A DNA stretch of 64,000 nucleotides from Nitrospiraceae bacterium (GTDB taxonomy: Bacteria > Nitrospirota > Nitrospiria > Nitrospirales > Nitrospiraceae), in contig JBBIJI010000016.1 in NCBI GenBank assembly GCA_037446055.1, positions 1-64,000 of the forward strand, given 5' to 3'. Shown piece after piece: positions 29,417 to 62,885 of this stretch. The notes beneath the pieces were generated by a model that did no database searches, was not told the DNA's origin, and saw only the letters and a list, made by a program, of their open reading frames with translations. The translations under genes and the position numbers were made by a program. Positions within the stretch are counted from its first letter, which is position 1. Each line of letters begins with the position of its first letter.

Positions 29417-29452
29417 CAAGTTCTGAGTTTTGAGTGTTGAGTTCTGAGTTGG
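29417..29452. repeat. family-1 low-complexity repeat (GAGTTCTGA/GAGTTTTGA/GTGTTGA units)
   Basis: Read directly: caagttctgagttttgagtgttgagttctgagttgg. Confidence 0.6.
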
Positions 29453-29517
29453 CAGAGAACGAAGGACTGCTCACGACACAGCAACAACCCGCTGGCACCC
29501 GACGAATCCGGCGTTCG

Positions 29518-29967
29518 TTAGAGAAGCCGCAAGGCAAGCTTGATGAGTCGGAGCTGGTTTTCCGCACTGTCCTGAACGGGTGGTTGGCTTCTTTCCCAGA
29601 AAACAAAAATCCCGTCTTTCCCCTCGTGGGTGACCTCCAAGGTCAGGTTCGTGCTGCTGTTCTGAGCCGGAGCAAGCGTCGCTTCAACCTGACTCTTCCC
29701 CGTTCCGAACCGCCAATGCAGCATCCAATTCCACGGACCGCCGGTTTGGCGACGATACCCCGTCGTCAGGCGTCCATTCTCCTGTTCATCGACGTCATAG
29801 CCCTGCTGCGTCAGGACGTCGATCACTGCTGTCTTCACCTGGTCCACGGGAGCCGCTAAGGTCGCTTCAATCCGATCGGATGGTGACGGGGGCATCCCAG
29901 AGCAGGCCGTCACGAGAAAGGCGACCGCCAACAGAGAGAAACTCGTTCTGGAATTCACAGCTATCAC
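29518..29967 (-). CDS. hypothetical lipoprotein
   Basis: Lipobox LVTACSG. No recognised domain. Confidence 0.5.
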   Translation of the reverse strand: MIAVNSRTSFSLLAVAFLVTACSGMPPSPSDRIEATLAAPVDQVKTAVIDVLTQQGYDVDEQENGRLTTGYRRQTGGPWNWMLHWRFGTGKSQVEATLAPAQNSSTNLTLEVTHEGKDGIFVFWERSQPPVQDSAENQLRLIKLALRLL

Positions 29968-30212
29968 TTGCGGAGGCGATAGACGAGGTGCGTGTCGGTC
30001 TGCGCAACCCCTTCGATCGCGTGGATCTTGGTCAGGACCAACTGCGTCAAGGCGTCCTGATCGGGCACTTCAACGATGGCGAAAATATCCGGTTTGCCCC
30101 AGCAAGGATCGATGGTCTTGATTTCTTTGATTTCCGAGAGGGCGCGAACAACGTCCGCCGTCTGTCCCGGCAGGACGTTGATGAGCACATAGGCGCGGTC
30201 TGACATCGTCAT
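29964..30212 (-). CDS. Lrp/AsnC ligand-binding (AsnC_trans_reg-like) small protein, 82 aa
   Basis: The C-terminal 80 aa of the ORF-track ORF form the stand-alone RAM domain pattern (YVLINV...IKTIDPCWGKPDIFAIVEV). Start trimmed to MTMSDRAY. Confidence 0.55.
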   Translation of the reverse strand: MTMSDRAYVLINVLPGQTADVVRALSEIKEIKTIDPCWGKPDIFAIVEVPDQDALTQLVLTKIHAIEGVAQTDTHLVYRLRK

Positions 30213-30369
30213 CGTCTCCAAGAACGATCGGTGCAATTGGAATCCAGCGCTCGATTGTGCGGTTCCAGATCTAACTAACGGATATTTGCGGGCGAAGTCA
30301 ATAATCCGGCCTGGAGAACGGTCTCTCCAAGAGACGCGTGGCTGGCGGACGAGGGGCTCAGCAACGAGG

Positions 30370-31617
30370 CTATTTCGGAGCCACGACCAGCTCGACCCGA
30401 TAGCGGGAGCCGACGCTGGTGACCTCTGCTTCAAATCCTGTGGGGTTTCCGATACGTCCTTCCGGATCGTACACAAAGCAGAAAAGCACGGCGTGGCCGC
30501 GTTGGCTGGAGAATCGCTCCATGTCGATCCGCAACTGGTCCTGAATCTCCCGCGTCGTTAGGCCGGGCCTGGTTTTCTTCACCACCGCCACAAGGCTCCC
30601 TTTGTTGAGTAGAAAAGCGGTCCGCGTCGCGCCATCGGAATAGCGCGGCACCCAATCCTCAGACCCCACCTCGTCGAACTGCAGCCGCAATAGCGCAAAG
30701 AAGAGGTCCTGGGCGTCGTAATCGTCTTCGACTTCCAGGGTCGCACGGTACTCCTTACGTAGTCGAAGCTGCCTTGCGACGATGTGAAAGCGGCTGCAGA
30801 CCTTCCGAAGGGTGGCCAGGGTGTCGTCCTCTCCACTGCGCGGCCCCGGTGACGCCTTCGTTGGCTCGACAGTCGCGGTGACGATCTCGGCGGGAGGGGG
30901 CGCAGATGCCTCCACGGTCTTGGGGACGGTGCCCGCTGAAGCTGGGGATGGTTGTGACGGCGCGCCCGCGGGCGGCTGACGGAGAACCGGGGTCGCCTGG
31001 GTGACGACGGCCGGCGCGGGAGGAGACGCCGATCGCGGGGGTGAAGGCTCGGCGGCGGGAGGGTGAACAACGGGAGCGACGGCTACCGGCGGTCCGGGTG
31101 GGGCCTGGTGATGGATCTGTGCCGCCGGGGCGGCTGGCGGAACCGGTGGAGTGCATGGGGCTCCTGGGGGCGGTGTGGCTGTCGCCGGAGCGGTGGCCAC
31201 CGGAGGGACCAATGTCAGCACAGGAGTCTGCGGACTCGGCGACGTAGTAGGGGGCTCCGGTGAAGGAGATGGCCGCAGGCCGAGAAGATCAAGCTTACGG
31301 TGCTCCAAATTGCCGATCAGTTTGTCCAACACATGGATCGTTTCGCTGATCTCGGCCTGGGATCCGGTACGCAGGCGATGGCCCTTGTTCTCTTGGTATT
31401 CGGGAGATCGATCTCCGAACAGGCGCTTGATGGCGTCGCGGATCTGGAGCTCAGTCCTCGCACGGACCGCGTCCCTATAAGGGAAGCCCTCGCCCCGCAG
31501 GTCCTCGACGGCGGCTTTGAGGGACTGAAGCTTCTCAATCCCTCGGTTAAGCTCTTCAACTGCAGCGGAAGTCTTCGAGCGCGGCTTTCCCAGTTCTGTA
31601 GCTTTGGTCCGTGCCAT
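30370..31617 (-). CDS. hypothetical protein with N-terminal coiled coil, about 120-aa Pro/Ala-rich linker and conserved C-terminal globular domain
   Basis: Low-complexity PxxP/APA segment. C-terminal region with an EVEDDYDAQD...K acidic pattern. Confidence 0.5.
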   Translation of the reverse strand: MARTKATELGKPRSKTSAAVEELNRGIEKLQSLKAAVEDLRGEGFPYRDAVRARTELQIRDAIKRLFGDRSPEYQENKGHRLRTGSQAEISETIHVLDKLIGNLEHRKLDLLGLRPSPSPEPPTTSPSPQTPVLTLVPPVATAPATATPPPGAPCTPPVPPAAPAAQIHHQAPPGPPVAVAPVVHPPAAEPSPPRSASPPAPAVVTQATPVLRQPPAGAPSQPSPASAGTVPKTVEASAPPPAEIVTATVEPTKASPGPRSGEDDTLATLRKVCSRFHIVARQLRLRKEYRATLEVEDDYDAQDLFFALLRLQFDEVGSEDWVPRYSDGATRTAFLLNKGSLVAVVKKTRPGLTTREIQDQLRIDMERFSSQRGHAVLFCFVYDPEGRIGNPTGFEAEVTSVGSRYRVELVVAPK

Positions 31618-39625: not shown

Positions 39626-42600
39626 ATGACGTCTTACTTCTATAACCCCAAGCGCAGGCGGTGTCGCGACCAGGCGATGTTCGGCCTGCAAGCTGCGGTG
39701 TTCGCGAGTAGCCTGCTCGCTGCACCGTGGCTTTTTGCGGCCGGGCCGGGAGATCAGTCCCATCAGGGACATGCGACTCCTGTCTCAATGCCGGGCTGGA
39801 CCCAAGCATTGAAGGGCCAGACGGTGGTGGAAAACGCCATCGAGGGCCGCGCGGGCAACGCGGAAAAGATGGAGATGCAGCACCATCGTTTAATGCAGAA
39901 GCTCGAGCAGCAGGCCCAGCAGGATGCCAGGGCCCAGCAGACATCGGGCGCCTTCAACAGTATGTCGATGATGCACCAATATATGGGCCAGGACGGCAGC
40001 AGCTTCCTGCTCATGACGGATGCGGCGAAGGGCGAACCGGTGTTGAGCACAGGCGGTCGTTGCCCGGCCAACGCACCGACCAAGCAGTACGATGTCTCGA
40101 TGATCAACGTCGAGATCACGCTGAACCGGTGGTTGGATTACTATCCCGGTTACATGTACGTGCTGACGGAGAACCTGGACAAGGTTCGAGCGGAGGAGGC
40201 GAAGAACAAAGCGGCACGAGAGAAGGAGGGGTTCGACCCCGGGGCGGTGAACACGGGATTGCAGGGCGATATGATTCAACCATTGGTCCTGCGCGCCAAC
40301 CAAGGCGATTGCGTCAAGATGACGCTCCGCAACCAGATGGAAGGCGAGGATGGGAGTCTGTTCATCCAGGCCTCCAGCATGATCGTGAGCGCGACGGGCA
40401 AGCCGGCGACGACAACCAATCCCGATTCGATCCTGGCGCCCGGCAAGTCGCAGGAATTCGAGTGGTATATCCACCCCCACATGCAGGAAGGGGTGCGGCA
40501 GTTCCATTCCTACAGCCATGACCGCGAGTTGACGGTGCTGGGATTGTTCGGAGCCTTCGTCATCGAGCCGAAGGGTTCCAGGTATCTCGACCCGTTGGGG
40601 ACCGGCCCGGCGCCTGAGGCGAAGAGCGGCTGGCAAGTGATGATTGATAACGGCTCGGGCCCGGATTTCCGCGAGCACGTGATTTTCTATCACGAGGTCG
40701 GGGACGAGGCGTTCCGGCCCCTGAACAAGAAGGGCGACTTCTTGCCCCAGCGCGATCCGCTTACGGACGCCTATCGTCCAGGCGGCCGCGCACTGAACTA
40801 CCGCAGTGAACCGTTCGGTATCGATCAGATGCATTTGCAGCACGAGTACTTCGGGTTCGAAGATGAATCCATGGCCTATAGCGCCTATACCTTCGGCGAT
40901 CCGCCGACGACGATTCCGCGCGGATATCTCGGTGACCCGACGAAGTGGCGTATTGTGCATGGCGGGTCGGAAGTGTTCCATTCCCACCATCCCCACAGCG
41001 GGTCCATCCGTTGGATCCGCAGCCCGCGCGCGGAACCGCAGGACTTCTGGGCCGCAGCAGCGGACGGGCCGATCAAGTACCCAGTGGTTCGTACCAAATC
41101 CGACCGGGTCGATGTGGAAGTCATCGGACCGTCTGAGGCGCTGGATCTCGAGGCCGAAGGCGGCGCCGGGCAGTCTCAGCATTTAGCCGGCGAGTTTCTG
41201 TTCCACTGCCACGTGGCGCACCACTATGTCGCGGGCATGTGGGGCTATGGCCGGGTGTATAACACGTTGCAAGTCGGCCCAGGCCACACCGACACGATGC
41301 CGGACCTCCGGGAGTTGCCGGACCGTCAAGGCCGCATCAAGATGGGCGTGACCTCCGATAAGCTCATCGGCACCACGGTGGACTGGTTCGGCAAGCAGTT
41401 CAAGATCGTGGCGCGCAACCAGAAGACCGATTGGAAAGCCAATCCGGCAGTCGTGAACATCAAGGATTGGGTCGAGATGTATCTGCCGGCGCAGGGCAAG
41501 CCTGGCCATACGGACGACGAAAAGGGCCAGATCATGTCCTATGACGCGACCGTGTGGGATTGGAAGTGGGATGGTGATGTCGCGAAAGGCGAGCGGGAGA
41601 GCACGGCCAAGTATCCGAAGTATCCCGCCGCGGCCAAGTGGGATGACAGCACCAGACCGAACATCCTGTTCGATCCGACAACAGGCAAGATGTCGTGGCC
41701 GCTCTTTAAACCGCACTTCGGCAAGCGGGTGCCGTTCTCGGCCAACCACAGCGGTGCGCCCTGGTTGGAGCCGATCCACCAAGACGAAAACGGCGAGCGG
41801 ACGAGCGAACCGGCGCGGCCTGGCGAAAACGGCCGTTGGAGCTTGTGTCCGGATAATGCCAACACGAAGTTCTACAACATCAAGTTCATCCGGCTTCCCA
41901 TCACCCTGGCCAAGAAGCAGGGGAAGGAACCGCCGATCGTGGACAAGGACGGTCTGATCTACGTCTTGGCCGAGGAAGAAAGGCTGGTTCGGGCCAACGA
42001 CGACCTGAAATATCCGCTCGTGCTCCGCGCGAACGTGTATGACTGCGTGGACTCGATCCTGACCAGCGAGTGGGACGACGACGACTTCACCAACTTTCAG
42101 GCGTCCAAGATCAACATCCATCCGCATTTCTTCCAGTTCGACACGGGGAACTCGGATGGGGTGATCTCGGGCTTTGAATACGAGATGTCGGTCCGGCCCT
42201 ATACCATGCACGAGAAGAAGAACAAGCATGGGTTGCCGGTGCCGATGAACTCCAAGCTGGTGGAGGCAGCGAAAGCCGGTGCGAAGTCGATCAAGATCAA
42301 GATGGCGACCGGTGCGACCAAGTATCACGTGAATACGGAGTTGCAAGTCGGCGCGGACTGCTTGGAGCCCAGCAAGGACACTACGACGTCCTTGAAGCGG
42401 GACGCGAGCTGCGCCGAAGTTGCACGGATCAAGGAAATCAGCGGCGACACGATCACGTTCCACAAGCCGCTGAAGCACAACCATCCGGTGGGCGATATCG
42501 TGACGCCGGAGTTCGTGCGCTATCGGTGGTGGGTGGACGTGGACATGGGGACCGTGTTCTGGCATGACCACGCGTTCGGCGCGACGACCTGGCCGCACGG

Positions 42601-48510: not shown

Positions 48511-48672
48511 TCCCCATCATAGGCCGAATGGCCTATTCCCCTGCCTGACAAGAATCACATTGGATGCCGGAGGCAGTCAAGGCGCCTCTGCGAAAGATTG
48601 CGTAGGCTTGCGGCGCGTGTGGGCTGTCTCGATACATCGACAATTCGACACATCTTACAAAGGAGGAGCGTG

Positions 48673-49365: not shown

Positions 49366-49371
49366 TGGTAA

Positions 49372-49732: not shown

Positions 49733-50839
49733 ATGCACCCCCCTCCACGCCTCGTCTACTGGGAAACCACGAAGCGCTGCAATTTACGCTGCGCGCACTG
49801 CCGTGCAATTCCGCAAACGCAGTCGTCTCCGGACGAGCTGTCGTTGGCCGAAGGCTTCAGACTCATCGACGCGATCGCCGAAGTGGGGCAACCCATTCTC
49901 GTGCTCACCGGCGGTGAGCCGCTGCTCCGGCGCGATCTCTTCGACTTAGCGACCTATGGCGCGTGGCGAGGGCTGCGAATGGCTCTGGCCACCAACGGGA
50001 CGCTTGTCAACCGCGACATGGCCAAACATGTCGTCGAGGCCGGATTCAAGCGAGTGTCGATCAGTCTCGACGGGCCGGACGCCGAGACGCATGACCGATT
50101 CCGCCGGGTACCGGGCGCGTTTGATCAAGCGGTGGATGGATTCATTCATCTGAAGGAGCTCGGCATGTCGATGCAGGTGAATACCACCGTCACCCTGCAG
50201 AACCGGGAACGACTTGAAGAGATCTATGAGTTGGTGCGGAAGCTCGGCGCCGACGCCTGGCATCTATTTTTGCTCGTCCCGGTCGGGTGCGGGCTGGAGA
50301 TCATGCGGACCGCCCAGCTCACTCCACGGGATTATGAAGAAGTGTTGTATTGGATCGACGAACTCGCTCAAACCGAGACGATGGAAATCCGCGCAACTTG
50401 CGCGCCGCACGCGCAGAGGATTCGGCTCCAGCGGCAGGCGATTGTTGAAGCCGGCGTTGATTCCCAGTCCGGTGATCGAACGGGTCGAGTTTCTAACTCA
50501 GAACTCAGAACTCAAGACTCAGAACTCCGAGCTTCCCGTCGCGGCTGCCTGGCCGGAACGGGCATTTGCTTTGTGTCTTATCGCGGGGAGGTCTTTCCAT
50601 GCGGCTACCTCCCGGTGTCAGCCGGGAACGTGCGCCAGCAATCCTTCAAATCTATCTGGGAGGAGGCGTCCGTTTTCGAGGAATTGCGTGATCCGAACTT
50701 GCTGCTGGGGAAGTGCGGAGTGTGCGAATATCGAATCGTCTGCGGCGGCTGCCGCGCGCGGGCCTTCGGGCAGACGGGCATTTATCTCTACGAAGAACCG
50801 TTCTGCAATTATCTTCCTGGCTCGGCGAGGACTGAATAG
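49733..50839 (+). CDS. radical SAM protein with C-terminal SPASM/twitch domain (anSME/NirJ/PqqE-like maturase); carries an in-frame repeat-derived 13-15 aa insertion
   Basis: Radical SAM motif CNLRCAHC. C-terminal motifs GCLAGTGICFVSYRGEVFPCG and CGVCEYRIVCGGCRARAF. The insertion VSNSELRTQDSELRAS is encoded by aactcagaactcagaactcaagactcagaactccgagc (50495-50532). No Shine-Dalgarno at the first ATG, so the start is uncertain. Confidence 0.8.
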   Translation: MHPPPRLVYWETTKRCNLRCAHCRAIPQTQSSPDELSLAEGFRLIDAIAEVGQPILVLTGGEPLLRRDLFDLATYGAWRGLRMALATNGTLVNRDMAKHVVEAGFKRVSISLDGPDAETHDRFRRVPGAFDQAVDGFIHLKELGMSMQVNTTVTLQNRERLEEIYELVRKLGADAWHLFLLVPVGCGLEIMRTAQLTPRDYEEVLYWIDELAQTETMEIRATCAPHAQRIRLQRQAIVEAGVDSQSGDRTGRVSNSELRTQDSELRASRRGCLAGTGICFVSYRGEVFPCGYLPVSAGNVRQQSFKSIWEEASVFEELRDPNLLLGKCGVCEYRIVCGGCRARAFGQTGIYLYEEPFCNYLPGSARTE

Positions 50840-50882
50840 CGAGCAGCGAACAGAGAATAGCGAGCAGCGAACAGCGGGCAGC
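50834..50882. repeat. family-3 repeat element (tgaatagcgagcagcgaacagagaatagcgagcagcgaacagcgggcagc); short partner arm gagctattcgctagttcag at 50968-50986
   Basis: Read directly. It overlaps the radical SAM stop codon. Confidence 0.65.
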
Positions 50883-51083
50883 TTTATGACGCCCTTTCCT
50901 TGTCCTTCCCCCGGGGACCCGTTGCTCCCCAAGATGCAGCGGGTGATGGGGAGGGAAGGGTGGGGGTGAGCTATTCGCTAGTTCAGATGAAAATAGTGCC
51001 CGGGACGGGGACAGGCACGCCGCTGCGGCGAGCCGGTCCCCTTCGAGCAAGATCGAGGGTCGAGCGACGGACGGGCGAGGGGC

Positions 51084-51902
51084 TTACGCGGCATTTCGAT
51101 ACAGGTAATCGGCGCCCACCGGTAAATGACCCAGCCATTGGAAGAAACGAGTCACTTCTTCACCGCGGAAAATGGAGCCATGTTGGGGGAGCATGGCGGT
51201 AATCCGGTACCCGGCCAGCTTCTTGATCATCCCGGCGACGGCCCGGTTACAGGACATGTACCGTTGGTGGAATCCCTGCATGGCTCTGATATGCGCGTCC
51301 CAGTTGTCGATGATGAGGTGGAAGGCATTGTCTTTATAGACAGACGCCCCGACATCGCCGGTAAATAAGAATCCGCTCTCCGAATCGAATAGCAGAATAT
51401 TCCCGGGTGAATGGAGATACGGCGCGGAAATGCACTCGAGGCGCCCTCCGCTCTTCAGCGTGATCGTCGCTCCTTCGTCGCCCACCGGGATATAGTTCAA
51501 CCTATAACTCTTCCCCGTGACATCCCGTGACTCGTAATGCGGCATGAACCGCTGCCACAGAGAGGAAATTACCAACTGGATGTTTTCGTTCCACTTCACC
51601 CAGCTCGGGAATGACGCGCAGATGTCGGGGTCTTGGTGGCTGAAATAGAGGTGCGAGACGGCGCTCGGTGACATCAGGTAACAGACCTTCTTGAATACCG
51701 GGGGGAAGCGGTCGAAGCCGCCGGGTTCCAGTAGGTAGCCTGCTCCTTCATCAATAATCAGATACGAGTTGCACTCGATTTCCTCTCCGGTGGAGTGAGC
51801 GCCGACCCAATAGATCTTGTGCGAGTCACCGTCATAGAGAAGGATGGGTTGGTCGGGGTCAACTGGCGAGTTCTTGAGTTCAAGCAATGGAAGCTTGGGC
51901 AT
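51084..51902 (-). CDS. MBL-fold protein, flavodiiron/ODP-like diiron domain without flavodoxin module
   Basis: Motifs HSTGEEIECNSYLIIDEGAGYLLEPGG, FSHQDPD and ITAMLPQHGSIFRG resemble the N-terminal beta-lactamase-like domain of flavodiiron and oxygen-binding diiron proteins. Confidence 0.6.
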   Translation of the reverse strand: MPKLPLLELKNSPVDPDQPILLYDGDSHKIYWVGAHSTGEEIECNSYLIIDEGAGYLLEPGGFDRFPPVFKKVCYLMSPSAVSHLYFSHQDPDICASFPSWVKWNENIQLVISSLWQRFMPHYESRDVTGKSYRLNYIPVGDEGATITLKSGGRLECISAPYLHSPGNILLFDSESGFLFTGDVGASVYKDNAFHLIIDNWDAHIRAMQGFHQRYMSCNRAVAGMIKKLAGYRITAMLPQHGSIFRGEEVTRFFQWLGHLPVGADYLYRNAA

Positions 51903-52181
51903 GCGAACACCTCCTCATGATTGGTAATGGGGTTATGCCCGGCCTCCAGACGGCATCTTAGGCGAAGCACGCCGCGATGCAAAGCCAATTCACCTTTTGA
52001 ACTTCGGCAGACGCCGGAGATCGATCCCCGAGCAACTCCGAGTAACAGGCGTGGGCAGCGAATGTATGGCGCGAACGGCAGGCAGCGAATAGCGAGGACG
52101 ATTTGGTGAAGCATGATTCGGTGATCCGGTGGAGTAATGTGCGAAACTTCGCCAGATCACCAAATCACCAATTCATACTTT

Positions 52182-52967
52182 TCACGGTCCGAGGTCTCGG
52201 GCGCACCGGAAGCCGAGGTCAAAAAACGTGCTCGCCGGTCCGAAGTAGTTTCGGTTGGTCGAGCGCAGGTCATAGAGCATGTTGTACCAAGAGCCTCCGC
52301 GCGCGACCTTGCTTCCGCCGCGAGCGGGCCCCGTCGGATTCCGATCGGGACTGCTCTTGTAGTAATTCACGTCGTACCAATCTGCGACCCACTCCCAGGT
52401 ATTGCCCGCCAGCTCATAGATCCCGTACGGGCTCTTCCCCGGCTCTAGACTTCCCACAGGCAACAGCGTCTCATACCCGATCCACGTCGCGCCGAAGTTC
52501 GCGCGGAGACGCGTCGGCTCCTCGTTCCCCCATGGGAACCTTCGTCCGTCGGTGCCCCGCGCGGCTTTCTCCCACTCGGCTTCGGTCGGGAGACGTTTCC
52601 CATAGTGGCGGCAGTAGGCATCGGCGTCATGCCAGGTGACGCCGACGACCGGACGACTGCCGTCGGTGACATGGTTCACATCCTTCCACTTCGACGGCGG
52701 CTCGCGACCGGTCTCTTGCATGAATCGACCGTATTGGGCAGTCGTCACCTCGAACTTATCCATATAGAACGCATCGAGGGAGACTCGATGGACAGGTTTC
52801 TCATCCGCCTCCCACCCTTCACTGCCCATCGTGAATTCTCCGGCTGGAACGAGAACCATCGGGGCGCCGTCCTTTCCGGTGATCTCGGGTGATCGTTCCT
52901 GAGCAAGGGCAAGTGCCGTCCACGAAATGACTGTTGCGAGGAGCGCGGTGAAGATTGAGAGTCGCAT
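52182..52967 (-). CDS. FGE-sulfatase fold protein, single-Cys PvdO/NirV-like subfamily, secreted (copy 3)
   Basis: Motifs MVLVPAGEFTMGSE, WHDADAYCRHYGKRLPTEAEWEKAARG, RGGSWYN and GFRCARDLGP. Start trimmed to MRLSIFTALL (signal peptide). Confidence 0.8.
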   Translation of the reverse strand: MRLSIFTALLATVISWTALALAQERSPEITGKDGAPMVLVPAGEFTMGSEGWEADEKPVHRVSLDAFYMDKFEVTTAQYGRFMQETGREPPSKWKDVNHVTDGSRPVVGVTWHDADAYCRHYGKRLPTEAEWEKAARGTDGRRFPWGNEEPTRLRANFGATWIGYETLLPVGSLEPGKSPYGIYELAGNTWEWVADWYDVNYYKSSPDRNPTGPARGGSKVARGGSWYNMLYDLRSTNRNYFGPASTFFDLGFRCARDLGP

Positions 52968-53440
52968 GGGCGGCGCCGTGCGTCGACTCAAACGATATAG
53001 CGAGGTCGCGGGCGATACGCCCTCAATAAGCTTGGCCATGCAAATCGAACGCCGAAGGGTATTCATTTGGCATCCCTTCTGGGCCACCAGAAGTTCGACA
53101 GCTCATCGAGCAAGGTCGATTGCCTCGATGCGCTCGGAAACGGTGAACCATACATCATTCTCCGTTGAGGCTCTCTCGACGAACGCTTCATACTTACTTA
53201 ACACCGCCCATTCTCTACAGCCCCGCCAGCGAAGGATCTCAGCGATAGGGAGCTTAACATTCGGTCCGCCCAGCCTTCTGTGGCATTGTGCAGCAGCTCA
53301 ATGAGGGTGTTTGTAGCTCTTTGACCCAGAGACGTACTGCATCCGCGCGGCAAGTCCCGTGGAATATCTTTCAACACGCATGAATAGTTAGCTCATTCCT
53401 CGGCTTGCTCGTGATTACAGGTGACGAAGAGGTGTAGTCC

Positions 53441-54214
53441 TTGCAACCCAGGTTTCTTGAGTACGCGCTTGCAAAGTCTTGCGCAAGTCCACGAGGCAGG
53501 GGAGTGAGACCCAAGCATTGCCTCATTGAAGGCTGCGACAGTTGCGGTTTACGTAGCAAGGCTGTGCTGTGCAACCTCACCGGAGAAGATCTCGCCGGCT
53601 TCGAGAAAATCAAGCGCTCCCTGATGTACGAACCTCAGCAGACGGTCTTCTACGAGGGCCATGCCTGCCTGGGCTTGTACTTGCTCTGTGCCGGCAAGGT
53701 CAAGCTTACCCGCTCTTCGGTCCGCGGCCAGCGACAGATCGTGCGCATCCTAGAGAGCGGCGAACTGATCGAGAAGCACGCGTTTCGGGCCAAGGCCATC
53801 CACGAAGTCACCTGTGAGACCCTGGAACCATCCCAGATCTGCCTGATCGAAAAGGAGCCCTACATGGCGCTCATCCAGCGCAACCCTGGGCTGGCCTTGA
53901 GCGTGATCCAACTCCTAAGCAGTGAACTGGGCATGAATATGGACCAGCTCGACCAGTTCACCTTCAAGACCGCGCGCGAGCGCCTGGCGGGACTGCTCGT
54001 GGAACTGGGCGAACGATTCGGCAAGAAGGCGGACGGCGGGCTTCTCGTGGGAATCACGCTCAAACGCGAGGAGGTGGCTGAAATGGCGGGCATCACCGTC
54101 GAAACGGCCATTCGGCTCCTCAGCGCCTTTCGGGACGAAGGACTCGTCAACATAGACGGACGAGCGATCACCCTCCTCAAGCCGGATCGCCTGGCCCGCA
54201 TCGCACGGCACTAA
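53441..54214 (+). CDS. Crp/Fnr family transcriptional regulator with N-terminal Cys cluster
   Basis: cNMP-binding fold (FYEGHACLGLYLLCAGKVKL). C-terminal HTH (REEVAEMAGITVETAIRLLS). N-terminal CLIEGCDSCG...C cluster reminiscent of FNR. Start uncertain (TTG in the ORF track). Confidence 0.75.
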   Translation: MQPRFLEYALAKSCASPRGRGVRPKHCLIEGCDSCGLRSKAVLCNLTGEDLAGFEKIKRSLMYEPQQTVFYEGHACLGLYLLCAGKVKLTRSSVRGQRQIVRILESGELIEKHAFRAKAIHEVTCETLEPSQICLIEKEPYMALIQRNPGLALSVIQLLSSELGMNMDQLDQFTFKTARERLAGLLVELGERFGKKADGGLLVGITLKREEVAEMAGITVETAIRLLSAFRDEGLVNIDGRAITLLKPDRLARIARH

Positions 54215-54216
54215 TC

Positions 54217-54412
54217 TGATAGCGAATAGCGAACAGCCAGCAGCTAACAGCAAATAGCGAGCAGCGAATAGCTCCGAGCGGCGCCTCTTTCAGCAGAATC
54301 CCCCTTTCTTCCCTGTCTTGCCCGGCTTATACCACCTAACTCTTAGCTGTTCCTAGCATTTAGCTACTCGCTATTCGCTGACTTTCGGCTACGCGCCACC
54401 TGCTGCTCGCTG
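54217..54412. repeat. family-3 palindromic repeat element (arms 54217-54275 and 54343-54412)
   Basis: Read directly: gatagcgaatagcgaacagccagcagctaacagcaaatagcgagcagcgaatagc ... tagctactcgctattcgctg. Confidence 0.65.
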
Positions 54413-54577
54413 ATCCCGAGCTATAGGTCCAAAGACCCATTCCTAGGCTTTGAGAAGAATCATAAGCCGGACCGGCTAACCACAGTGTTGGCTTACCTCG
54501 TTTTCTTTACTGTGGGCGTCGAAAAAGAAGGGTGCGGGCCGAACGCATGACGATGGCTCCCTCCACAGAGCCGGCCA

Positions 54578-55105
54578 ATGATGAGGCGATCACGGCGCAC
54601 ACGTAAGGAAGCAGCAGTGGACCCCGTGGCCCTTCTGAAACGGGAACACGAGATGATCCTGGAACAGTTGCACATGATCGAGGCCACGATCGGACCGAAG
54701 AGCAAGAAAGGAGCTGCGCTGTTGGAGCCGGGTCGAAGCACGCTCTGCGAACTGTTCCGTTTTTTCACCGGACGAGTGGACGTGCACTACAAGCGGGAAG
54801 CGACGCTGATTTCCGCGCTCAGTCGCGTTGTTGGGCGTAAGAACGGAGAACGCGAACAATTCGAGGGCTTGCTCTGTGAGCATCGCGCACTGAAAGCGGA
54901 TGCGGCGAGCATTATGAAGCGACTTTCGAAACACACTGCAACCCCGTCCGTTGCCGACGGCGCCGATCGGTTGGGAATTCGGTCGTTCGTGAAGCGCTTC
55001 CGCAGTCATATTGCATGCGAGGAGCGCATTCTCTACGTGCTGGCCGGCATGCGACTGAACGCCGAGCAAAAACAGCGCGTCGGTCATCGCATGTTGCAGG
55101 TCTGA
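54578..55105 (+). CDS. hemerythrin-like (HHE cation-binding) domain protein
   Basis: Motifs LLKREHEMILEQL, HYKREATLI and ACEERILYV give the H...HxxxE...H...HxxxxD-type spacing of hemerythrin-like metal sites. The 5' end is probably shorter than the ORF track shows. Confidence 0.6.
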   Translation: MMRRSRRTRKEAAVDPVALLKREHEMILEQLHMIEATIGPKSKKGAALLEPGRSTLCELFRFFTGRVDVHYKREATLISALSRVVGRKNGEREQFEGLLCEHRALKADAASIMKRLSKHTATPSVADGADRLGIRSFVKRFRSHIACEERILYVLAGMRLNAEQKQRVGHRMLQV

Positions 55106-55109
55106 CAAT

Positions 55110-55202
55110 GCAGCGAATAGCGAACAGCCGGCAGCGAGTAGCAGGCAGCAGGCAGCTCAAATCGACAAGCTGCTAGCTACTCGCTACTCGCTATTGGCTA
55201 CC
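55110..55202. repeat. family-3 palindromic repeat element
   Basis: Read directly: gcagcgaatagcgaacagccggcagcgagtagcaggcagcaggcagc ... tagctactcgctactcgctattggcta. Confidence 0.7.
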
Positions 55203-55290
55203 TGAAGAGAAGAAGGGAGGTGAGCTGACGGCAACAGTGGTCCCAGGCACAGCCAGTAATCTGACAGCGAGCGTTTTGTAGAGAGGAGGA

Positions 55291-56499
55291 ATGATCATGA
55301 GAAGGACAAGAGGAATGGTCGTCGCGATGATGGCGCTCACCCTCTGCGCGTTTGCGGCGGGTGTCGCGTTTGCGGCCGACCCAGAAGTCAAGACGCACAA
55401 GCAACCCTATCCGGACCGATGGAACTCGATCAAAAACCCGCCGGTGAGCAAGTTCGGTTATCCACCTGATATCTGGGCCGCCGAGAACATGTCGTTCCGG
55501 GCGACCGGCAAGATCGTCGAATACTACCTGACGATCGAGCAGATCAAGTGGAACATCGTCGGCGACGTGTACGTGACGCAGTGGGCGTTCAACGGGCAGG
55601 TGCCCGGACCGCTCCTGACGGCGACCGAGGGCGACATCGTCCGCATTACGGTCAAGAACAACACGACCATTGACCACACCATTCACCCGCACGGGTTCTG
55701 GGTGCCGGTCAATATGGACGGCGTGCCGAACATCACCCAGTTGTCGATCCAACCGGGCGAGACGTTCGTGTATGAGTTCATGGCGAAGCCCTCAGGGCAC
55801 CATTTCTATCACTGCCACGTGAACGCGGCGACGCACATGGACATGGGACTCTATGGGTCCTTCGTCGTGTATCCGCCGGCTGAAGCGGCGAACGGGACGA
55901 ATGCGAACCAGGTGGCCGATCCTGCAGCCAGAATCGACCGGGACTACGTGATGATCCTGGACGAGGTGGACACGCGGATCGACGACGGCGAGAGCGGAGG
56001 CATGGAACTCGGCCATCCGAGGAAGATCGCCAACTTCAACTACTTCACGATCAACGGCAAATCCTTTCCCGAGACGCCGATGATCTTCGTGCGGGAAGGC
56101 GACATCGTGCGGGTCCGATTCCTGAATTTCGGTTACTGGTCCCATGCGATGCACCTGCACGGCCATGCGTTTGCGCAAGCCAGTGCCGAGTGCGATCGCT
56201 GTCCGAAATACTGGGAGTTCAGGGACGCGATGAACCTGAACGCCGCGCAACGAACCGACATCGTCTTTAAGGCCAACAATCCCGGCCGGTGGGTGTTCCA
56301 CTGCCACCGGGTGCCCCACGCGACGAATGACGGAGCCTATCCGGGCGGACTCCTGACGATCATCGAGTACGAGAACAACCCGTACCTGCCGGTGATTCCG
56401 CAGTTGCCGTTGCCGGGGTTCAAGCACATGGACGATCCGAAGACCATGAACATGTCGCTGTCGCATAAGGCGATCAAGAAGCAGCTCGCGGGCGAATAG
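55291..56499 (+). CDS. two-domain multicopper oxidase (secreted)
   Basis: Shine-Dalgarno GAGAGGAGGA. Signal peptide ends in AFA-AD. Domain 1 motifs HTIHPHG and HHFYHCHVNAATHMDMG. Domain 2 motifs MHLHGHAF and WVFHCHRVPHATNDG. No NirK-specific signatures. Confidence 0.8.
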   Translation: MIMRRTRGMVVAMMALTLCAFAAGVAFAADPEVKTHKQPYPDRWNSIKNPPVSKFGYPPDIWAAENMSFRATGKIVEYYLTIEQIKWNIVGDVYVTQWAFNGQVPGPLLTATEGDIVRITVKNNTTIDHTIHPHGFWVPVNMDGVPNITQLSIQPGETFVYEFMAKPSGHHFYHCHVNAATHMDMGLYGSFVVYPPAEAANGTNANQVADPAARIDRDYVMILDEVDTRIDDGESGGMELGHPRKIANFNYFTINGKSFPETPMIFVREGDIVRVRFLNFGYWSHAMHLHGHAFAQASAECDRCPKYWEFRDAMNLNAAQRTDIVFKANNPGRWVFHCHRVPHATNDGAYPGGLLTIIEYENNPYLPVIPQLPLPGFKHMDDPKTMNMSLSHKAIKKQLAGE

Positions 56500-56576
56500 C
56501 CGTAGAACTGGAACGGTGCTTGAGGAGGTGAGGAGCTCCCGCTCCTCCCTCCCGGCGTCGAGAGGAGGGAGAGGTC

Positions 56577-56903
56577 ATGAAAATGTCACGGTTGTTACTG
56601 GTCGCGATCTCCTGGACGATCCTGTTTGGTGGCGTGGCATTCGCTGATCGCGTGGTCCATTCCGGGAATGTCACCAAGATCAACAAGGACTCCGGGGCGG
56701 TCGAGATCGAGTTACGGAACGGGGGAACGAAGGCATTTACGGTGACGGACAAAGACATTCTGGCCAGTCCCGTGTGGAAAAAGCGGCTCAACGTCGGCGA
56801 CGGCGTGGACATCACGGCCGACGGCGACAAGGTCATCACGGTGCTTCGCCGGAATCTGCCGGTCACGATCCGGCCTGCGGAGACCGCAGCGGCTCCTAAA
56901 TAG
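56577..56903 (+). CDS. small secreted protein (108 aa), tandem paralogue A
   Basis: Signal peptide ends in AFA-DR. Mature region is more than 90% identical to the product of 57040-57372. Confidence 0.55.
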   Translation: MKMSRLLLVAISWTILFGGVAFADRVVHSGNVTKINKDSGAVEIELRNGGTKAFTVTDKDILASPVWKKRLNVGDGVDITADGDKVITVLRRNLPVTIRPAETAAAPK

Positions 56904-57039: not shown

Positions 57040-57372
57040 ATGCTGATGAAGCCTTCGAAAGTGTTACTGCTCGTGATCTTAGGTGTGATTCTATCCGGCG
57101 GAATAGCCTTGGCCGGCGATCGCGTGGTCCATTCCGGGAACGTCACCAAGATCGACAAGGATTCCGGGGCAGTCGAGATCGAGTTGCGGAACGGGGGAAC
57201 GAAGGCATTTACAGTGACGGACAAAGACATTCTGGCCAGTCCCGTGTGGAAAAAGCGGCTCAACGTCGGCGACGGCGTGGACATCACGGCCGACGGCGAC
57301 AAGGTGATCACGGTGCTCCGCCGGAATTTGCCGGTGACGATCCGACCCCCGGAGGCGCCGGCGGCGAAATGA
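57040..57372 (+). CDS. small secreted protein (110 aa), tandem paralogue B
   Basis: Mature part is near-identical (DRVVHSGNVTKIxKDSGAVEIELRNGGTKAFTVTDKDILASPVWKKRLNVGDGVDITADGDKVITVLRRNLPVTIRP). Confidence 0.55.
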   Translation: MLMKPSKVLLLVILGVILSGGIALAGDRVVHSGNVTKIDKDSGAVEIELRNGGTKAFTVTDKDILASPVWKKRLNVGDGVDITADGDKVITVLRRNLPVTIRPPEAPAAK

Positions 57373-59355: not shown

Positions 59356-60177
59356 ATGAACAAGTGGGGACTGATCGGCGTATGTGGGATAGCGACAGCA
59401 GCCTGGCTTTCCGCCGGGGTGGCAGAGAGTTTTGCTGCCGGGACCATAAGCGGGACAGTGACATTCGCGGGTAATGCGCCTGCGAACCCGAAAATTCGCA
59501 TCGCGAAGAACGCGGACTATTGCGGGACCGAGATCGAATTACCGGTCCTGGTGGTGAATCCGAAGAACAAGGGCGTCCAGTGGACGGTCGTCTATCTGGA
59601 AGGCGCCACCGGCGGGCCGACGCAGGAGAAATATGATTTGGAGATGGGCGATCCCAAGAAGAAGTGCGACTTCGTGCAGCATGTCGTCGCGATGGTCAAG
59701 AACAAAAACATTTCAATGAAGAACACCGATCCGATTCTGCACAATCCGCACACCTTCAACGATAAACACGCAACGCAGTTCAACGTCGCGCTCTCGGAAA
59801 AGGGTCAGGTGATTGAGCGGAAGTTGCGCGCGGGCGGACTCAATAAACTCCAATGCGACTCCCATGTGCATATGAACGGCTATGTGTATACGTTCGACCA
59901 TGGGTATTTTGCCGTCACCGACGGGGATGGCAACTTCAAGATCGGCGATGTTCCTCCGGGCAAGTACAAGGTCGTTGCCTGGCACGAGAGCTGGAAAGCG
60001 AAGAACATGGAGGATGTGACTCGCTCGATCAAGGAAGCGGAAGAGAAGATCAAAGCAGGCCATATCAAGCCGGAAGATGCCCAACTTGAGCGTCCGAACT
60101 ACGAAGACCACATCGTGCTGACCAAGGAGATCGAGGTGAAAGACGGCGAGGTCAAGGTCGCGTTTGAACTGAAATAA
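59356..60177 (+). CDS. secreted cupredoxin-like protein (C-x2-H-x2-M site) with C-terminal beta-sandwich domain; paralogue of 44809-45738
   Basis: Shine-Dalgarno TAAGGAGGG. Signal peptide ends in AAG-TI. Motifs QCDSHVHM and DGNFKIGDVPPGKYKVVAWH. Shares the N-terminal TxSGxVT motif with the paralogue. Confidence 0.7.
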   Translation: MNKWGLIGVCGIATAAWLSAGVAESFAAGTISGTVTFAGNAPANPKIRIAKNADYCGTEIELPVLVVNPKNKGVQWTVVYLEGATGGPTQEKYDLEMGDPKKKCDFVQHVVAMVKNKNISMKNTDPILHNPHTFNDKHATQFNVALSEKGQVIERKLRAGGLNKLQCDSHVHMNGYVYTFDHGYFAVTDGDGNFKIGDVPPGKYKVVAWHESWKAKNMEDVTRSIKEAEEKIKAGHIKPEDAQLERPNYEDHIVLTKEIEVKDGEVKVAFELK

Positions 60178-60189
60178 ACCCAGCTTGGG

Positions 60190-60265
60190 CGAACAGCAAG
60201 TAGCTGGCAGCTCGTAGCGGGCAGATGATTCCGGGCTGTCCGCTATGAGCTGTTCGCTCAGCTCA
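60190..60265. repeat. family-3 repeat element (gaacagcaagtagctggcagctcgtagcgggcag ... cgctatgagctgttcgctcagctc)
   Basis: Read directly. Confidence 0.6.
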
Positions 60266-60477: not shown

Positions 60478-60501
60478 TGAGGCGGGAGGCCGAGGTCTTA
60501 C

Positions 60502-60571
60502 GAGTTCTGAATTCTGAGCTAGGAGTTCTTGCTGACAAGTCAGAACTCAAACCTTTCAATTCAGAACTGCT
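60502..60571. repeat. family-1 palindromic repeat element (cgagttctgaattctgagctaggagttcttgc ... gtcagaactcaaacctttcaattcagaactgc)
   Basis: Read directly. Confidence 0.65.
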
Positions 60572-60611
60572 GCCTCTCGCCCCATGCCCGGCTTGTTCAA
60601 GGAGGCCGACA

Positions 60612-61307
60612 ATGAGCGTTGGCACCCTGCGCGGTTTTGTAGCTCTTTACTTATTGCTGTTTGCCTTTTGCCTTGTCCCTTCACCGGGGTGGGCCCATGA
60701 GCTGAGCCAGCCGGTCCCGATCTTACTCGAGCGCATGCACGATACGCTCTTGCTGATCAACCGAGGGAAACCGGATCAGGCTTACGCGAAGGCGGCCTCG
60801 ATCCGGGAGGACTTTCCCGACACGAGCCGCGGACGTCTGATCCAGGAAGTCGGCTTGCTTCGCACGGCCGTGCGCCTCGATTCCGCCTATCGGACCTCGC
60901 TCGCGGAGGAGACTGCCGGCGCACTGGATCGGAAAGACGTGCCTCGCCTCCAGAAGGCGCTCTACTCTCTGTCATTCCTCCTCATCCTCGAAAAATTGGA
61001 CCGACTGGACCTGCTCATGCAGGATTCGAGCGCGCGCGTCGAAACCCGGGCCGCCGTGCTGGCGGTCGCCCATGACTATTTCTCCCACATGTTCGAGCGG
61101 CTCCTGAAATTCCGCGCGCCGGAGCAGATCAAAACGTTGGACCGATTGCTCGACCGAATGGCGGTCGCGGTCAAGCGGGGGGATGCGACTGGGCTGGAAG
61201 CCTTGCGGGCCGAGTTCCTGGCTGGGCTGGTTGACGGCTTTCAGGAGCAGCTTGTCGGCGCGCAGTTACGGTCGATCGTGGCTGCGGCCAAGGGATCAAG
61301 AGCATGA
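60612..61307 (+). CDS. secreted hypothetical protein
   Basis: Shine-Dalgarno GGAGG. Signal peptide ends in GWA-HE. Helical Leu/Ala/Arg-rich sequence. Confidence 0.5.
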   Translation: MSVGTLRGFVALYLLLFAFCLVPSPGWAHELSQPVPILLERMHDTLLLINRGKPDQAYAKAASIREDFPDTSRGRLIQEVGLLRTAVRLDSAYRTSLAEETAGALDRKDVPRLQKALYSLSFLLILEKLDRLDLLMQDSSARVETRAAVLAVAHDYFSHMFERLLKFRAPEQIKTLDRLLDRMAVAVKRGDATGLEALRAEFLAGLVDGFQEQLVGAQLRSIVAAAKGSRA

Positions 61308-61837
61308 CCGAACATCTCACAGTGAAAGCCCCGCCGCTGGCAGCCGTATTTGCGTGCCTCCTTCTCTTCGGGTGGGGCGAGCTGGCCGGCGCGCTCCAGG
61401 GCGGCTTTCGAACGCAGATTCTGGCCACCGCCGCGGAAGCGGCCAAAGAGTATCCGACCGTCCACCAGCTCACGGGCTTGAGCGATGTCGATCAAACCAT
61501 CGTGGAAGGGATCGCCCAGGAGGTCCTGGCGCGACTCCATCTCTTCCATACCCACACGCACGGGCTGGGCCTCGTGACGCTCGCGATGGTCACCGTCATC
61601 GCCAATCTTTCGGTCGCCGAACGGCTCCGGATCTTGTTGACGAGCTGGGTGCTGCTCGGATTGTTGTACCCGTTCGGATGGCTCACCGTGGCGATTGCGC
61701 TCCCGGCGAGGGGGAAGGCCGCAGCGTTTGCCCTGGCTGAACGGTGGTTCTTCATTCCGTTCGGCGGGCTTTATCTCTTGGGCGTGGGAACCTTGATCGC
61801 GTTGCTGGCCTGGCAGCTCATGCGAGGAATACGATGA
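61304..61837 (+). CDS. hypothetical membrane protein (4-5 TM)
   Basis: Overlaps both neighbours by ATGA. Hydrophobic helices throughout. Confidence 0.5.
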   Translation: MTEHLTVKAPPLAAVFACLLLFGWGELAGALQGGFRTQILATAAEAAKEYPTVHQLTGLSDVDQTIVEGIAQEVLARLHLFHTHTHGLGLVTLAMVTVIANLSVAERLRILLTSWVLLGLLYPFGWLTVAIALPARGKAAAFALAERWFFIPFGGLYLLGVGTLIALLAWQLMRGIR

Positions 61838-62838
61838 CCAGGATTGAGGAGCGAGGGCTCAGGATTGCGGTTCCTGAGGCCGACGCTCAGTCCTCGGCAC
61901 TCAATAGTCAGTGCTTGTCGAGGGCGCCGTTCTATTCCGGCGGGCAATACTTGCGGGAGCAGTTCCCGTTCCGGGTTTTCAAGATCGCGGTAGACGCCGG
62001 CTTCAACTGTCCGAACCGCAACGGCACGAAGGGGCACGGGGGGTGCATCTATTGCAACAACGCCAGCTTCAGCGCCAACAGTCGCACGATTCGCGTTCCG
62101 CTCGGCCGGCAGATCGAGGACGGAATGCGGTTCTATCAGGATCGGCTGCAAGGCGAGAAGTTCATCATCTACTTTCAGGCCTATACGAACACGTTCGGCC
62201 CGGTGGATTACCTGCGCACGGTCTATGATCAGGCGCTGGTGAATCCCGCCGTCGTGGGCCTGTCGATCGGGACGCGTCCGGATTGTGTGCCGGACGCGGT
62301 CCTGGATCTTCTCGCGGAGTACGAGCAGCGCACACACCTGTGGCTCGAATTGGGCCTCCAGAGCAGCCACGATGCGACGCTGCGGCGTCTCAACCGACGC
62401 CATACCTATGCGGAATTCACTGATGCCGTGCGTCGAGCCAAGCAGCGAGGACTCCGTGTGTGTGCGCACGTGATTCTCGGACTTCCGGGAGAGTCGCGGT
62501 ACATGATGCTGCAGACGGCGGAGCGGCTGGCGCGACTCGGGATCGACGGGTTGAAGCTGCATCACCTCTATGTGGCGAGGGACACGGCGCTCGAGCGCGC
62601 ATACCGGCGGGGGACGATTCGGGTCCTTGCGTTGCCGGAATATGTCTCGTTGGCCTGTGACTTTCTCGAACGCACCCCTACCGGGGTCGTCATCCAACGT
62701 GTGACGGGCGAGGTGGCCGAGGATTACGTGGTGGCCCCCCACTGGGGCGTCACCAAACTGCAGGTGGTCCATCGAATTCACGAGGAATTCGGACGGCGGG
62801 GAACGAGGCAGGGAAGCCAGGCGCCTTCGGCGAATTGA
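61834..62838 (+). CDS. radical SAM protein, TIGR01212 (YhcC-like) family
   Basis: Motifs FKIAVDAGFNCPNRNGTKGHGGCIYCNN and GLKLHHLYV are characteristic of this family. Start at the ATG at 61834 (ATGA overlap). Confidence 0.8.
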   Translation: MTRIEERGLRIAVPEADAQSSALNSQCLSRAPFYSGGQYLREQFPFRVFKIAVDAGFNCPNRNGTKGHGGCIYCNNASFSANSRTIRVPLGRQIEDGMRFYQDRLQGEKFIIYFQAYTNTFGPVDYLRTVYDQALVNPAVVGLSIGTRPDCVPDAVLDLLAEYEQRTHLWLELGLQSSHDATLRRLNRRHTYAEFTDAVRRAKQRGLRVCAHVILGLPGESRYMMLQTAERLARLGIDGLKLHHLYVARDTALERAYRRGTIRVLALPEYVSLACDFLERTPTGVVIQRVTGEVAEDYVVAPHWGVTKLQVVHRIHEEFGRRGTRQGSQAPSAN

Positions 62839-62840
62839 GA

Positions 62841-62885
62841 ATTCTGAATTCTGAATTTTCGGAGACGGCCAATTCATAATTCGCG
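62841..62885. repeat. family-1 repeat element (gagaattctgaattctgaatttt ... ccaattcataattcgcg)
   Basis: Read directly. Confidence 0.6.

Follow-up and report, generated by a model that had tools for sequence, protein, structure and literature searches.

Heptanucleotide repeat arrays and hairpins in and around a copper/NirK island of a Nitrospiraceae bacterium

The stretch of DNA analysed here, hereafter the window, comprises positions 1 to 64,000 of contig JBBIJI010000016.1 from a Nitrospiraceae bacterium and has a GC content of 59%. It carries six copies of a short repeat with GAGTTCT-like words, most of them in and near a copper/nitrite-reductase (NirK) island, which a preliminary description made from the letters had called family 1. 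We conclude that these elements are very probably heptanucleotide simple sequence repeat (SSR) arrays, of the same kind as the cyanobacterial STRR, the Xanthomonas GGGAATC and the Beggiatoaceae TAACTGA repeats. The traits seen are a strict 7-nt period, imperfect units, several word sets in one genome, a location in gaps that mostly separate co-directional or convergent genes, and reverse complements that are often paired into stem-loops of -25 to -77 kcal/mol. The preliminary description was a correct sighting of an ordinary, unexplained element class, in which the unit length was misjudged and the family concept over-read. An explanation which takes in the identity of the elements, their origin by slippage and a function as stem-loops without a U-tail stands, as a whole, at roughly even chances in our judgement.

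Repeat unit and anatomy of the six copies

Direct reading of the sequence confirmed that all six loci lie where they had been placed before. Their words had been described as about 9 nt long, but the unit is 7 nt. Tandem Repeats Finder (TRF) gave period 7 at all six sites, and a self-match period scan of the window found 16 period-7 arrays, as compared to none or one for each other period from 3 to 13, five at the double period of 14, and about 0.25 period-7 arrays in shuffled sequence. Examples of the register are GAGTTCT GAGTTTT GAGTGTT GAGTTCT and AACTCAG AACTCAG AACTCAA GACTCAG. A two-unit GAGTTCT 14-mer with at most two mismatches has 13 matches in the 64-kb window against 0.35 expected, all of them inside the six sites and none elsewhere in the window. 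The units follow one another head-to-tail at exactly 7 nt in at least three imperfect copies, which is what characterises a heptanucleotide SSR, and within the 64 kb dispersed loci share a common word and coexist with other word sets, the six GAGTTCT-type loci standing next to GTCAATG, AGCGAAT and AGTGACG sets. It was also correct that the family-1 words are reiterated in the same architecture as other sets (GTCAATG/CAATGAC and AGCGAAT/GCTATTC), and that the copies co-occur with these two in the window. The only ground for grouping GAGTTCT, GAGTTAT, GAATTCT and AATTCAT as one family is that the words look alike, which is a matter of judgement; nothing is shared between the loops and flanks of the copies.

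Each copy was folded as RNA and compared with shuffled sequences (z scores). The inverted arms that had been attributed to the elements in general were found in two copies, 44706-44795 and 60500-60573, and not in the other four. Both hairpins have the GAGTTCT-type arm first and the AGAACTC-type arm second. The hairpin at 44706-44795, also picked up by TRF and the period scan, has the 5' arm GAGTTAT GAGTTAT GAGTGTT GAGTGGG (44713-44742) and the 3' arm ..AGAACTC ATAACTC AGAACT (44760-44790), and the fold of 44700-44800 reached -36.4 kcal/mol on the + strand and -24.9 kcal/mol on the - strand (z = -5.2 and -4.7). Its neighbours are a conserved intrinsic terminator on one side and the ribosome-binding site of gene 44809-45738 on the other. 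The terminator (44654-44694, + strand, a 14-bp GC stem followed by T7) lies just upstream of the hairpin, is not a heptamer element, and is kept in the relatives L122, L124 and L125 introduced below. Between 44 and 64 kb it is the only strong match to the definition of an intrinsic terminator (a GC-rich stem of 5-20 bp and a short loop, with a U-tract behind them), and the family-1 hairpins do not qualify. The second hairpin, 60500-60573, has the 5' arm GAGTTCT GAATTCT GAGCTAG GAGTTCT and the 3' arm TCAGAACTC..TTCAGAACT, and is located upstream of the ribosome-binding site of gene 60612-61307; for 60495-60580 the fold was -27.6 kcal/mol (+) and -28.0 kcal/mol (-), with z = -3.1 and -2.4.

The other four copies read on the + strand. 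A single-arm array at 29419-29451, (A)GTTCTG AGTTTTG AGTGTTG AGTTCTG AGTTG, begins 14 nt past the stop codon of an NtrC-type gene (27975-29405) and folds like the shuffles (z = -0.45); this is the copy at 29.4 kb that had rightly been placed outside the copper island. Just beyond it a 415-aa open reading frame (ORF) with a C-terminal DpnII/MboI restriction-endonuclease domain (30370-31617, - strand) runs convergent to the NtrC operon. The single-arm array at 49693-49728, AATTCAT AATTCAT CATTCAT AATTCAG AATTG, stops 4 nt short of the ATG of a radical SAM gene, at whose start codon no Shine-Dalgarno sequence is visible, and it has no significant structure (z = +0.74). Five of the six copies are intergenic, and the remaining one is a single-arm array inside the same radical SAM gene, at 50493-50534 (CTAACTC AGAACTC AGAACTC AAGACTC AGAACTC CGAGCTT), likewise without a significant fold (z within -0.45 to +0.74). 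The last copy, 62832-62890, just past the stop of gene 61744-62838, consists of a (GAATTCT)x3 array (62832-62860) and a separate small GC hairpin (62864-62890, GACGGC..GCCGTC with AATTCATAATTC in the loop), and its fold is weak (z = -1.8). A scan of the whole window against Rfam 15 matched none of the elements; the only match was a tRNA at 17005-17078.

Word turnover, arm polarity and possible role

Four syntenic relatives (L122, L124, L125 and L126) were retrieved through the radical SAM protein. Many of their corresponding island gaps are also occupied by heptamer arrays or hairpins, often with different words, among them GAGGACT, GAGGCGA, GGTTGAG, CAGCTTT/CTGAAAG, CGTGAAG, GGTGAGG and AGCGAAT. 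Both family-1 hairpins are missing from the orthologous gaps of the closest relative, L122, which has about 83% nucleotide identity to the window. The hairpin at 44706-44795 appears as an insertion of about 92 nt relative to L122, between AAGTTAGGAG and AGGAGGCCG in our reading of the alignment junction, and L124 and L125 have other heptamer elements at this position. Both arms are similar at their outer ends to the ancestral flank TTTTTTTAGAAGTTAGGAG, once in direct and once in inverted form, which hints that the hairpin may have been born in place through duplication of local sequence, and not have arrived from elsewhere. Instead of 60500-60573, L122 has an unrelated GC palindrome of similar length, and L125 and L126 have GAGGACT and GAGGCGA hairpins, respectively; the sequence of L124 ends before this gap. 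Thus this gap, which precedes the 60612 orthologue, has a hairpin in the window, L122, L125 and L126, made up of four unrelated sequences. For the AGCGAAT-type arrays, positions are conserved between the window, L122 and L126.

The exact 20-mer TGAGTTCTGAGTTCTGAGTT was scanned through a collection of species-representative genomes, where about one chance match was expected, and it was present at no fewer than 120 loci. As the copies have in common a 7-nt word and arms that are complementary by construction, and nothing more, a covariance model would merely recover this k-mer. The matches listed (120 loci, 882 kb) contain 351 period-7 arrays, as compared to 5-51 for other periods, and come from Cyanobacteria, Bacteroidota, Acidobacteriota, Chloroflexota, Planctomycetota, Nitrospirota, Gemmatimonadota and other phyla. 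Among them are same-word arrays in four Nitrospirota loci (L008, L014, L097 and L110), and a hairpin architecture like that of the window was seen in Nitrospiraceae/Nitrospira (L014, L097 and L110), Methylomirabilota (L083), Blastocatellia (L003), Phycisphaeraceae (L025) and Tolypothrix (L044). Additional copies of the family-1 word do therefore exist in other genomes, the opposite of one of the two outcomes that the preliminary description had named as speaking against it. The idea of GAGTTCT as a special word that has spread across phyla was rejected: in viral contigs it was found at 8 loci, and three permutations of the same composition at 25, 19 and 11 loci. Since the permuted control words are equally or more frequent, GAGTTCT is not a special, horizontally spreading word, and any heptamer is prone to form arrays. 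These controls also speak against a family of related copies, since the permuted heptamers build arrays as often or more often. What family 1 denotes is a class of words, and not a lineage by descent.

With the control words equally widespread, the distribution does not require transfer, and this bears on the possibility that the copies are non-autonomous mobile elements (REP/BIME-, MITE- or RPE-like) which insert as units, also in frame. The clean insertion at 44706-44795 relative to L122 would fit such elements, as would the same word and architecture in many phyla, and candidate in-frame copies in two housekeeping genes (L070 and L115, judged by eye) are reminiscent of the Rickettsia palindromic elements. 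The copies have, however, no common core, loop or terminal sequence, and neither a transposase nor a RAYT (Y1 transposase) gene was found among the window ORFs scanned. The insertion does not look like a MITE either, as no target-site duplication is seen at the 44706/44795 junction and the arm ends appear to be derived from the local flank. We consider mobility very improbable.

It is conceivable that the arrays are instead word-specific binding sites for a trans-acting factor, either an antisense RNA or a single-strand nucleic-acid binding protein of the cold-shock domain, S1 or KH type that would cover about 7 nt, through which loci with the same word would be co-regulated. The same word does occur at six loci in 64 kb, neighbouring gaps share words, and the array at 49693-49728 lies right at a start codon without a Shine-Dalgarno sequence. 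Binding of S1, Csp or CsrA has been proposed by MacGregor, and CspB binds one protein per heptamer (PMC4679880); according to a Nostoc preprint, deletion of a heptamer repeat alters the regulation of a recO reporter (10.1101/2022.06.06.494920). Against this, nothing encoded in the window was recognised as a candidate binding protein, the units are degenerate, and orthologous gaps of close relatives hold unrelated words, which means that a word-specific regulon would need constant rewiring. We find this explanation improbable.

The copy inside a gene, which had been noticed as such before, belongs to an AhbD/NirJ-like radical SAM/SPASM gene (49733-50839, + strand; Pfam). Its protein is 100% identical to a database protein (P0001), and the closest named relatives are from Nitrospirota or Nitrospiraceae metagenome-assembled genomes (MAGs). 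The array is translated as SNSELRTQDSELRA, within the linker that joins the radical SAM core to the SPASM domain, and in 40 aligned homologues, with 53-82% identity to the window protein, this linker was hypervariable in both length and sequence. In the DNA of the linker, heptamer hairpins are seen in three relatives, with the word CGTGAAG in L122 (-34 kcal/mol) and L125 (-40 kcal/mol) and with AGGTTGA in L126 (-48 kcal/mol), and L124 has a (CACTCAG)4 array. A tandem (GAGTTCT)n carries TGA in all three frames; the window array is present only in the AGAACTC orientation, in which the tandem is open in all three. The single unit that would place TGA in frame is mutated in two relatives, to CGTTAAG in L122 and to GCGTCCA in L125. 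The mutated units and the stop-free orientation are direct signs of purifying selection on arrays within ORFs. Among the matches listed, 14 of the 122 GAGTTCT arrays lie within long open frames, many of them reading RTQNSEL-like repeats. Two of these, (AGAACTC)n arrays in L070 (Flagellimonas) and L115 (a Gammaproteobacteria MAG), read ...NSELRTQN... in frame in genes that by eye are LeuRS-like and EpmA/GenX-like, respectively, and are candidates for in-frame insertions in conserved proteins.

Since 7 is not a multiple of 3, slippage in the intragenic array could cause a frameshift, so that gain or loss of a unit might switch the radical SAM frame, or alter the spacing of a promoter or an untranslated region, as in phase variation. 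A case that depends on a heptamer SSR has been reported in Haemophilus (PMC12721329). The units here are imperfect, which suppresses slippage, and all orthologues of the radical SAM gene keep the frame. Moreover, no array-length polymorphism was seen in two comparisons in all, L122 with L123, which are two samples of the relative (0 gaps and 1 mismatch in 11.5 kb), and the window with the contig L121 (100% identical). Phase variation at these loci seems very unlikely to us.

The order of the arms in the two family-1 hairpins is also found in other genomes. Among the matches listed, GAGTTCT arrays had an inverted partner within 250 nt downstream in 27 cases (of 112 arrays) and upstream in 4, and a scrambled-word control gave 0. 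An independent set, AGCGAAY arrays of about three units in metagenome contigs, had the partner downstream in 37 cases (of 97 arrays) and upstream in 3 (p = 2e-8), with 1 and 0 for the reverse-word control. The paired arrays that we tallied comprise 28 word families; when GAGTTCT-like families are left out, the 5' arm has more G than C in 14, more C than G in 1 and equal amounts in 6. There are exceptions to the G-rich arm coming first, for instance CAGCTTT...CTGAAAG in L122 and L125. By crude ORF calls, the GAGTTCT arrays among the matches listed are in 40 tandem, 15 convergent and 4 divergent gaps, the AGCGAAY arrays in 22, 18 and 4, and unpaired arrays between co-directional genes have their G-rich strand on the sense side in 30 cases as compared to 15. 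The preference for tandem and convergent gaps and the G-rich strand on the sense side speak for a role linked to the transcript.

A strong rival is that the arrays are purely neutral, by-products of slippage and template switching which have no function and persist only where they are harmless, in gaps and flexible linkers. This would agree with the rapid word turnover between relatives of about 83% identity, the degenerate units, the lack of structure in half of the family-1 copies, and a hairpin stability without bias towards the sense strand. Likewise, heptamers of the same composition form arrays at similar rates, arrays are tolerated in a hypervariable linker, and Mrazek, who described an excess of heptanucleotide SSRs, proposed slippage (as quoted in passages of PMC4679880 and PMC4692102). 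The strong and replicated arm polarity (27:4 among the matches listed, and 37:3) is, on the other hand, not obviously predicted by a symmetric process. It is also difficult to reconcile neutrality with the avoidance of divergent gaps, with an island crowded with arrays next to 44 kb holding a single one, and with the one gap that has a hairpin in four genomes despite complete replacement of its sequence. We regard a purely neutral nature as possible, but not as probable.

In the explanation we favour, the arrays would arise and turn over through slipped-strand mispairing, and the second arm would be created through intrastrand template switching or inverted duplication of local sequence. On the sequence comparisons made, such an origin, with inverted partners formed locally, might or might not be correct with about equal probability. 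Paired copies that are transcribed within the long + strand copper/NirK cluster would fold to tail-less stem-loops. These might act like REP/BIME or stabiliser hairpins, as barriers to 3' exonucleases, or alternatively as processing or insulation points between cistrons or as weak tail-less terminators. Such a function as tail-less intercistronic stem-loops, predicted from modelled folds, is put forward tentatively, as something that may be the case. Single-arm copies would be unstructured spacers, and the copy in the radical SAM gene would simply lengthen a flexible linker by 14 residues that the protein tolerates; unpaired and intragenic copies would both be tolerated by-products. The G-rich-first order may tentatively be ascribed to selection against exposing a C-rich, G-poor arm, similar to a Rho-loading site, before its partner has been transcribed.

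Several points weigh against this explanation. Three of the six family-1 copies have no structure beyond chance, and a U-tail or T-tract is absent after every hairpin examined, so that the terminator role implied in the preliminary description finds no support in its canonical form. The fold of the sense-strand RNA is more stable than that of the antisense strand in only 8 of 22 hairpins, which means that the G·U asymmetry expected under selection on the structure of the sense RNA is lacking, and selection on sense-strand RNA is unsupported. The gene-context counts rest on crude ORF calls, and the function of the hairpins is inferred from predicted folds. The recurrence of one word at six separate loci of the window is not accounted for by slippage alone. 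Finally, arrays are present in so many gaps of the island that their apparent conservation of position could be the mark of a mere mutational hot spot.

A more far-reaching possibility, which we consider rather unlikely, is that heptamer palindromes are selected, self-renewing intercistronic elements. Their words would drift while occupancy and a universal G-rich-first polarity are maintained across phyla, and the polarity would be a co-transcriptional constraint by which the C-rich arm is never left unpaired, for example as protection against Rho loading. If this is true, the Nitrospirota Cu/NirK island would offer a natural system where a hairpin survives the complete replacement of its sequence, and where such elements occupy even a coding linker. 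Apart from this, the window provides a Nitrospirota example with good comparative leverage, with five syntenic genomes in which words turn over while gaps stay occupied, together with an in-frame case with visible stop-codon avoidance. The replicated rule of the G-rich arm first is a constraint on any mechanism. In annotation, these elements should be taken neither for a genome-specific family nor for terminators, and the arrays extend or truncate ORF ends and break assemblies. We believe that three aspects are worth following up, namely the polarity, the fact that hairpins persist although their words are replaced, and the in-frame copies that avoid stop codons.

Other elements in and around the island

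The elements are located in and near the + strand gene cluster of the copper/NirK island, which has three NtrC-type activators upstream. The cluster codes for a 1648-aa multicopper-oxidase-like protein, three proteins with an FGE-sulfatase domain, the radical SAM/SPASM enzyme, a Crp-family regulator, a hemerythrin and a NirK-like multicopper oxidase. Many gaps between 44 and 64 kb hold a heptamer array or hairpin from about four word sets, and the array at 29.4 kb is the single one in the first 44 kb of the window. Pairing was found in two of the six family-1 copies and in most of the other folded word sets of the window.

A (TAGTCAT)n ... (CCAATGA)n hairpin at 45746-45820 was identified by TRF, period scan and folding. 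It is followed by a GTCAATG/CAATGAC double hairpin at 46695-46850 (-77 kcal/mol), which overlaps the 3' end of gene 45838-46746. The AGCGAAT/GCTATTC hairpin at 48364-48513 (TRF, period scan and fold) supplies the stop codon of ORF 47876-48406, which is 176 aa long, its L122 counterpart having 168 aa. Since arrays overlap the 3' ends of both these genes, they remodel C-termini. Another AGCGAAT/GCTATTC hairpin (49371-49510; TRF and fold) shares its intergenic gap with the array at 49693-49728, and its position is conserved in L126. An AGCGAAC-type array on the + strand (50834-50882, TRF) begins at the stop codon of the radical SAM gene, and L122 has the same word in the same place. After the Crp-family gene comes an array pair at 54219-54382, AGCGAAT at 54219-54272 with a GCTATTC partner at about 54340-54382 (TRF and fold), which is conserved in L122 and L126, and after the hemerythrin gene an AGCGAAT/GCTACTC hairpin at 55110-55201 (TRF, period scan and fold). 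The AGCGAAC-type hairpin at 60186-60262 (fold), after gene 59356-60177, retains only its 5' arm in L122. Directly after a TPR gene (63009-63941) there is an (AGTGACG)n array on the + strand (63943-63974, TRF), where L126 carries (GGTGAGG)n.

The relative L124, with a genome of 59.5% GC, has an AT-rich hairpin, (AAAATGA)n ... (TTTTCAT)n, at its positions 4589-4657, straddling the start of an FGE-sulfatase gene (4611-5543). The Logan contig L121, from an independent assembly of SRR11582173, is 100% identical to the window over 49440-56106, arrays included, so the arrays are not artefacts peculiar to one assembly. It starts at 49440, within the AGCGAAT array region 49371-49510, and this break suggests that arrays fragment short-read assemblies.

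Some observations concern the island itself. Just downstream of heptamer hairpins, the gaps at 48519-48557 and 54421-54462 hold a palindrome (ATAGGCCGAATGGCCTAT or CTATAGGTCCAAAGACCCAT) and then a pair of FNR/Crp-like half-sites (TGACAAGAATCA or TTGAGAAGAATCA). The former is the best-conserved non-coding stretch relative to L122, 92.5% over 160 nt, and the two gaps are probably promoters under the regulator of the Crp family whose gene is at 53441-54214. A GC hairpin which is not built of heptamers (56522-56553, GGAGGTGAGGAGC TCCC GCTCCTCCCTCC) lies in the gap that separates the NirK-like gene from the following ORF. It is nearly identical in L126 and L122, and is thus conserved in sequence, unlike the heptamer hairpins. 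The 1648-aa ORF (39626-44572), with a weak Cu-oxidase_3 match near residue 1300 as its sole Pfam match, is conserved in all four syntenic relatives, with lengths of about 1613-1646 aa, and appears to be a large uncharacterised copper-island protein. The adjacent ORFs 56577-56903 and 57040-57372, of 108 and 110 aa, are paralogous, each L122 copy matching both by BLAST, and the L122 orthologues have no Pfam domain on record. A 32-nt tandem duplication at 1214-1275 (2 copies, 80% match, TRF) is unrelated to the heptamer arrays.

Comparison with known repeats

In a survey of prokaryotes, tandem heptamers were reported to be the commonest periodic repeat of intergenic regions, and no clue was given to what they do (10.1101/309039). 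A literature search found no paper linking heptamer repeats to Nitrospira.

The REP/BIME of Enterobacteria and Pseudomonas resemble the elements described here in being intergenic, transcribed hairpins that alternate in orientation within operons, and they are credited with effects on mRNA stabilisation and termination (PMC2817692 and PMC3733652). A REP is, however, a single palindrome of 20-40 nt with a conserved GTAG/CGTC head and is mobilised by RAYT, whereas the copies in the window share only the 7-nt word and have unrelated loops and ends. The Rickettsia palindromic elements, reported by Ogata and co-workers in 2000, are in-frame palindromic repeats at structurally tolerant sites of proteins. 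In this they are like the in-frame copies seen here in coding genes; they are conserved elements of about 100-150 nt with recognisably homologous copies, and not units that have only a 7-nt word in common.

The GGGNATC repeats of Xanthomonas and Nostoc (Rehm et al. 2015, PMC4692102) also lie in gaps between aligned ORFs and are rare between divergent ones. They are frequently paired in what was termed a convergent manner, in which the G-rich arm precedes its partner on either strand. Close relatives differ in the length and sequence of these repeats, most of which are transcribed. They differ in being rich in G-tracts and able to form G-quadruplexes, which GAGTTCT cannot. The words of the window have no G-tracts, and a G-quadruplex reading is therefore not applicable to them.

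The TAACTGA repeats (MacGregor 2015, PMC4679880) are present in 2-6 copies directly upstream of start codons without canonical ribosome-binding sites, in unrelated phyla (marine Beggiatoaceae, cyanobacteria and Bacteroidetes), and occasionally within ORFs in a stop-free orientation, all of which has its counterpart here. Nearly all of them are direct repeats, with one inverted set among 170, whereas the island is dominated by paired hairpins.

The cyanobacterial STRR have imperfect 7-nt tandem units and several word families per genome, as in the window. The window word GTCAATG/TGGTCAT is within one base of TTGGTCA, reportedly the STRR2 word (Mazel and co-workers, 1990); a text search of the literature for the STRR words gave nothing but primer sequences. 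Like the elements of the island, STRR are intergenic and often form hairpins between co-transcribed genes; an example is the 7-bp STRR hairpins between hupS and hupL, for which roles in transcript stability or translational coupling have been suggested (PMC2670836). The host here is a Nitrospirota of about 59% GC, and its words differ from those of STRR1-3. Thus, the heptamer arrays of the window are an analogue of the STRR, and not STRR proper.

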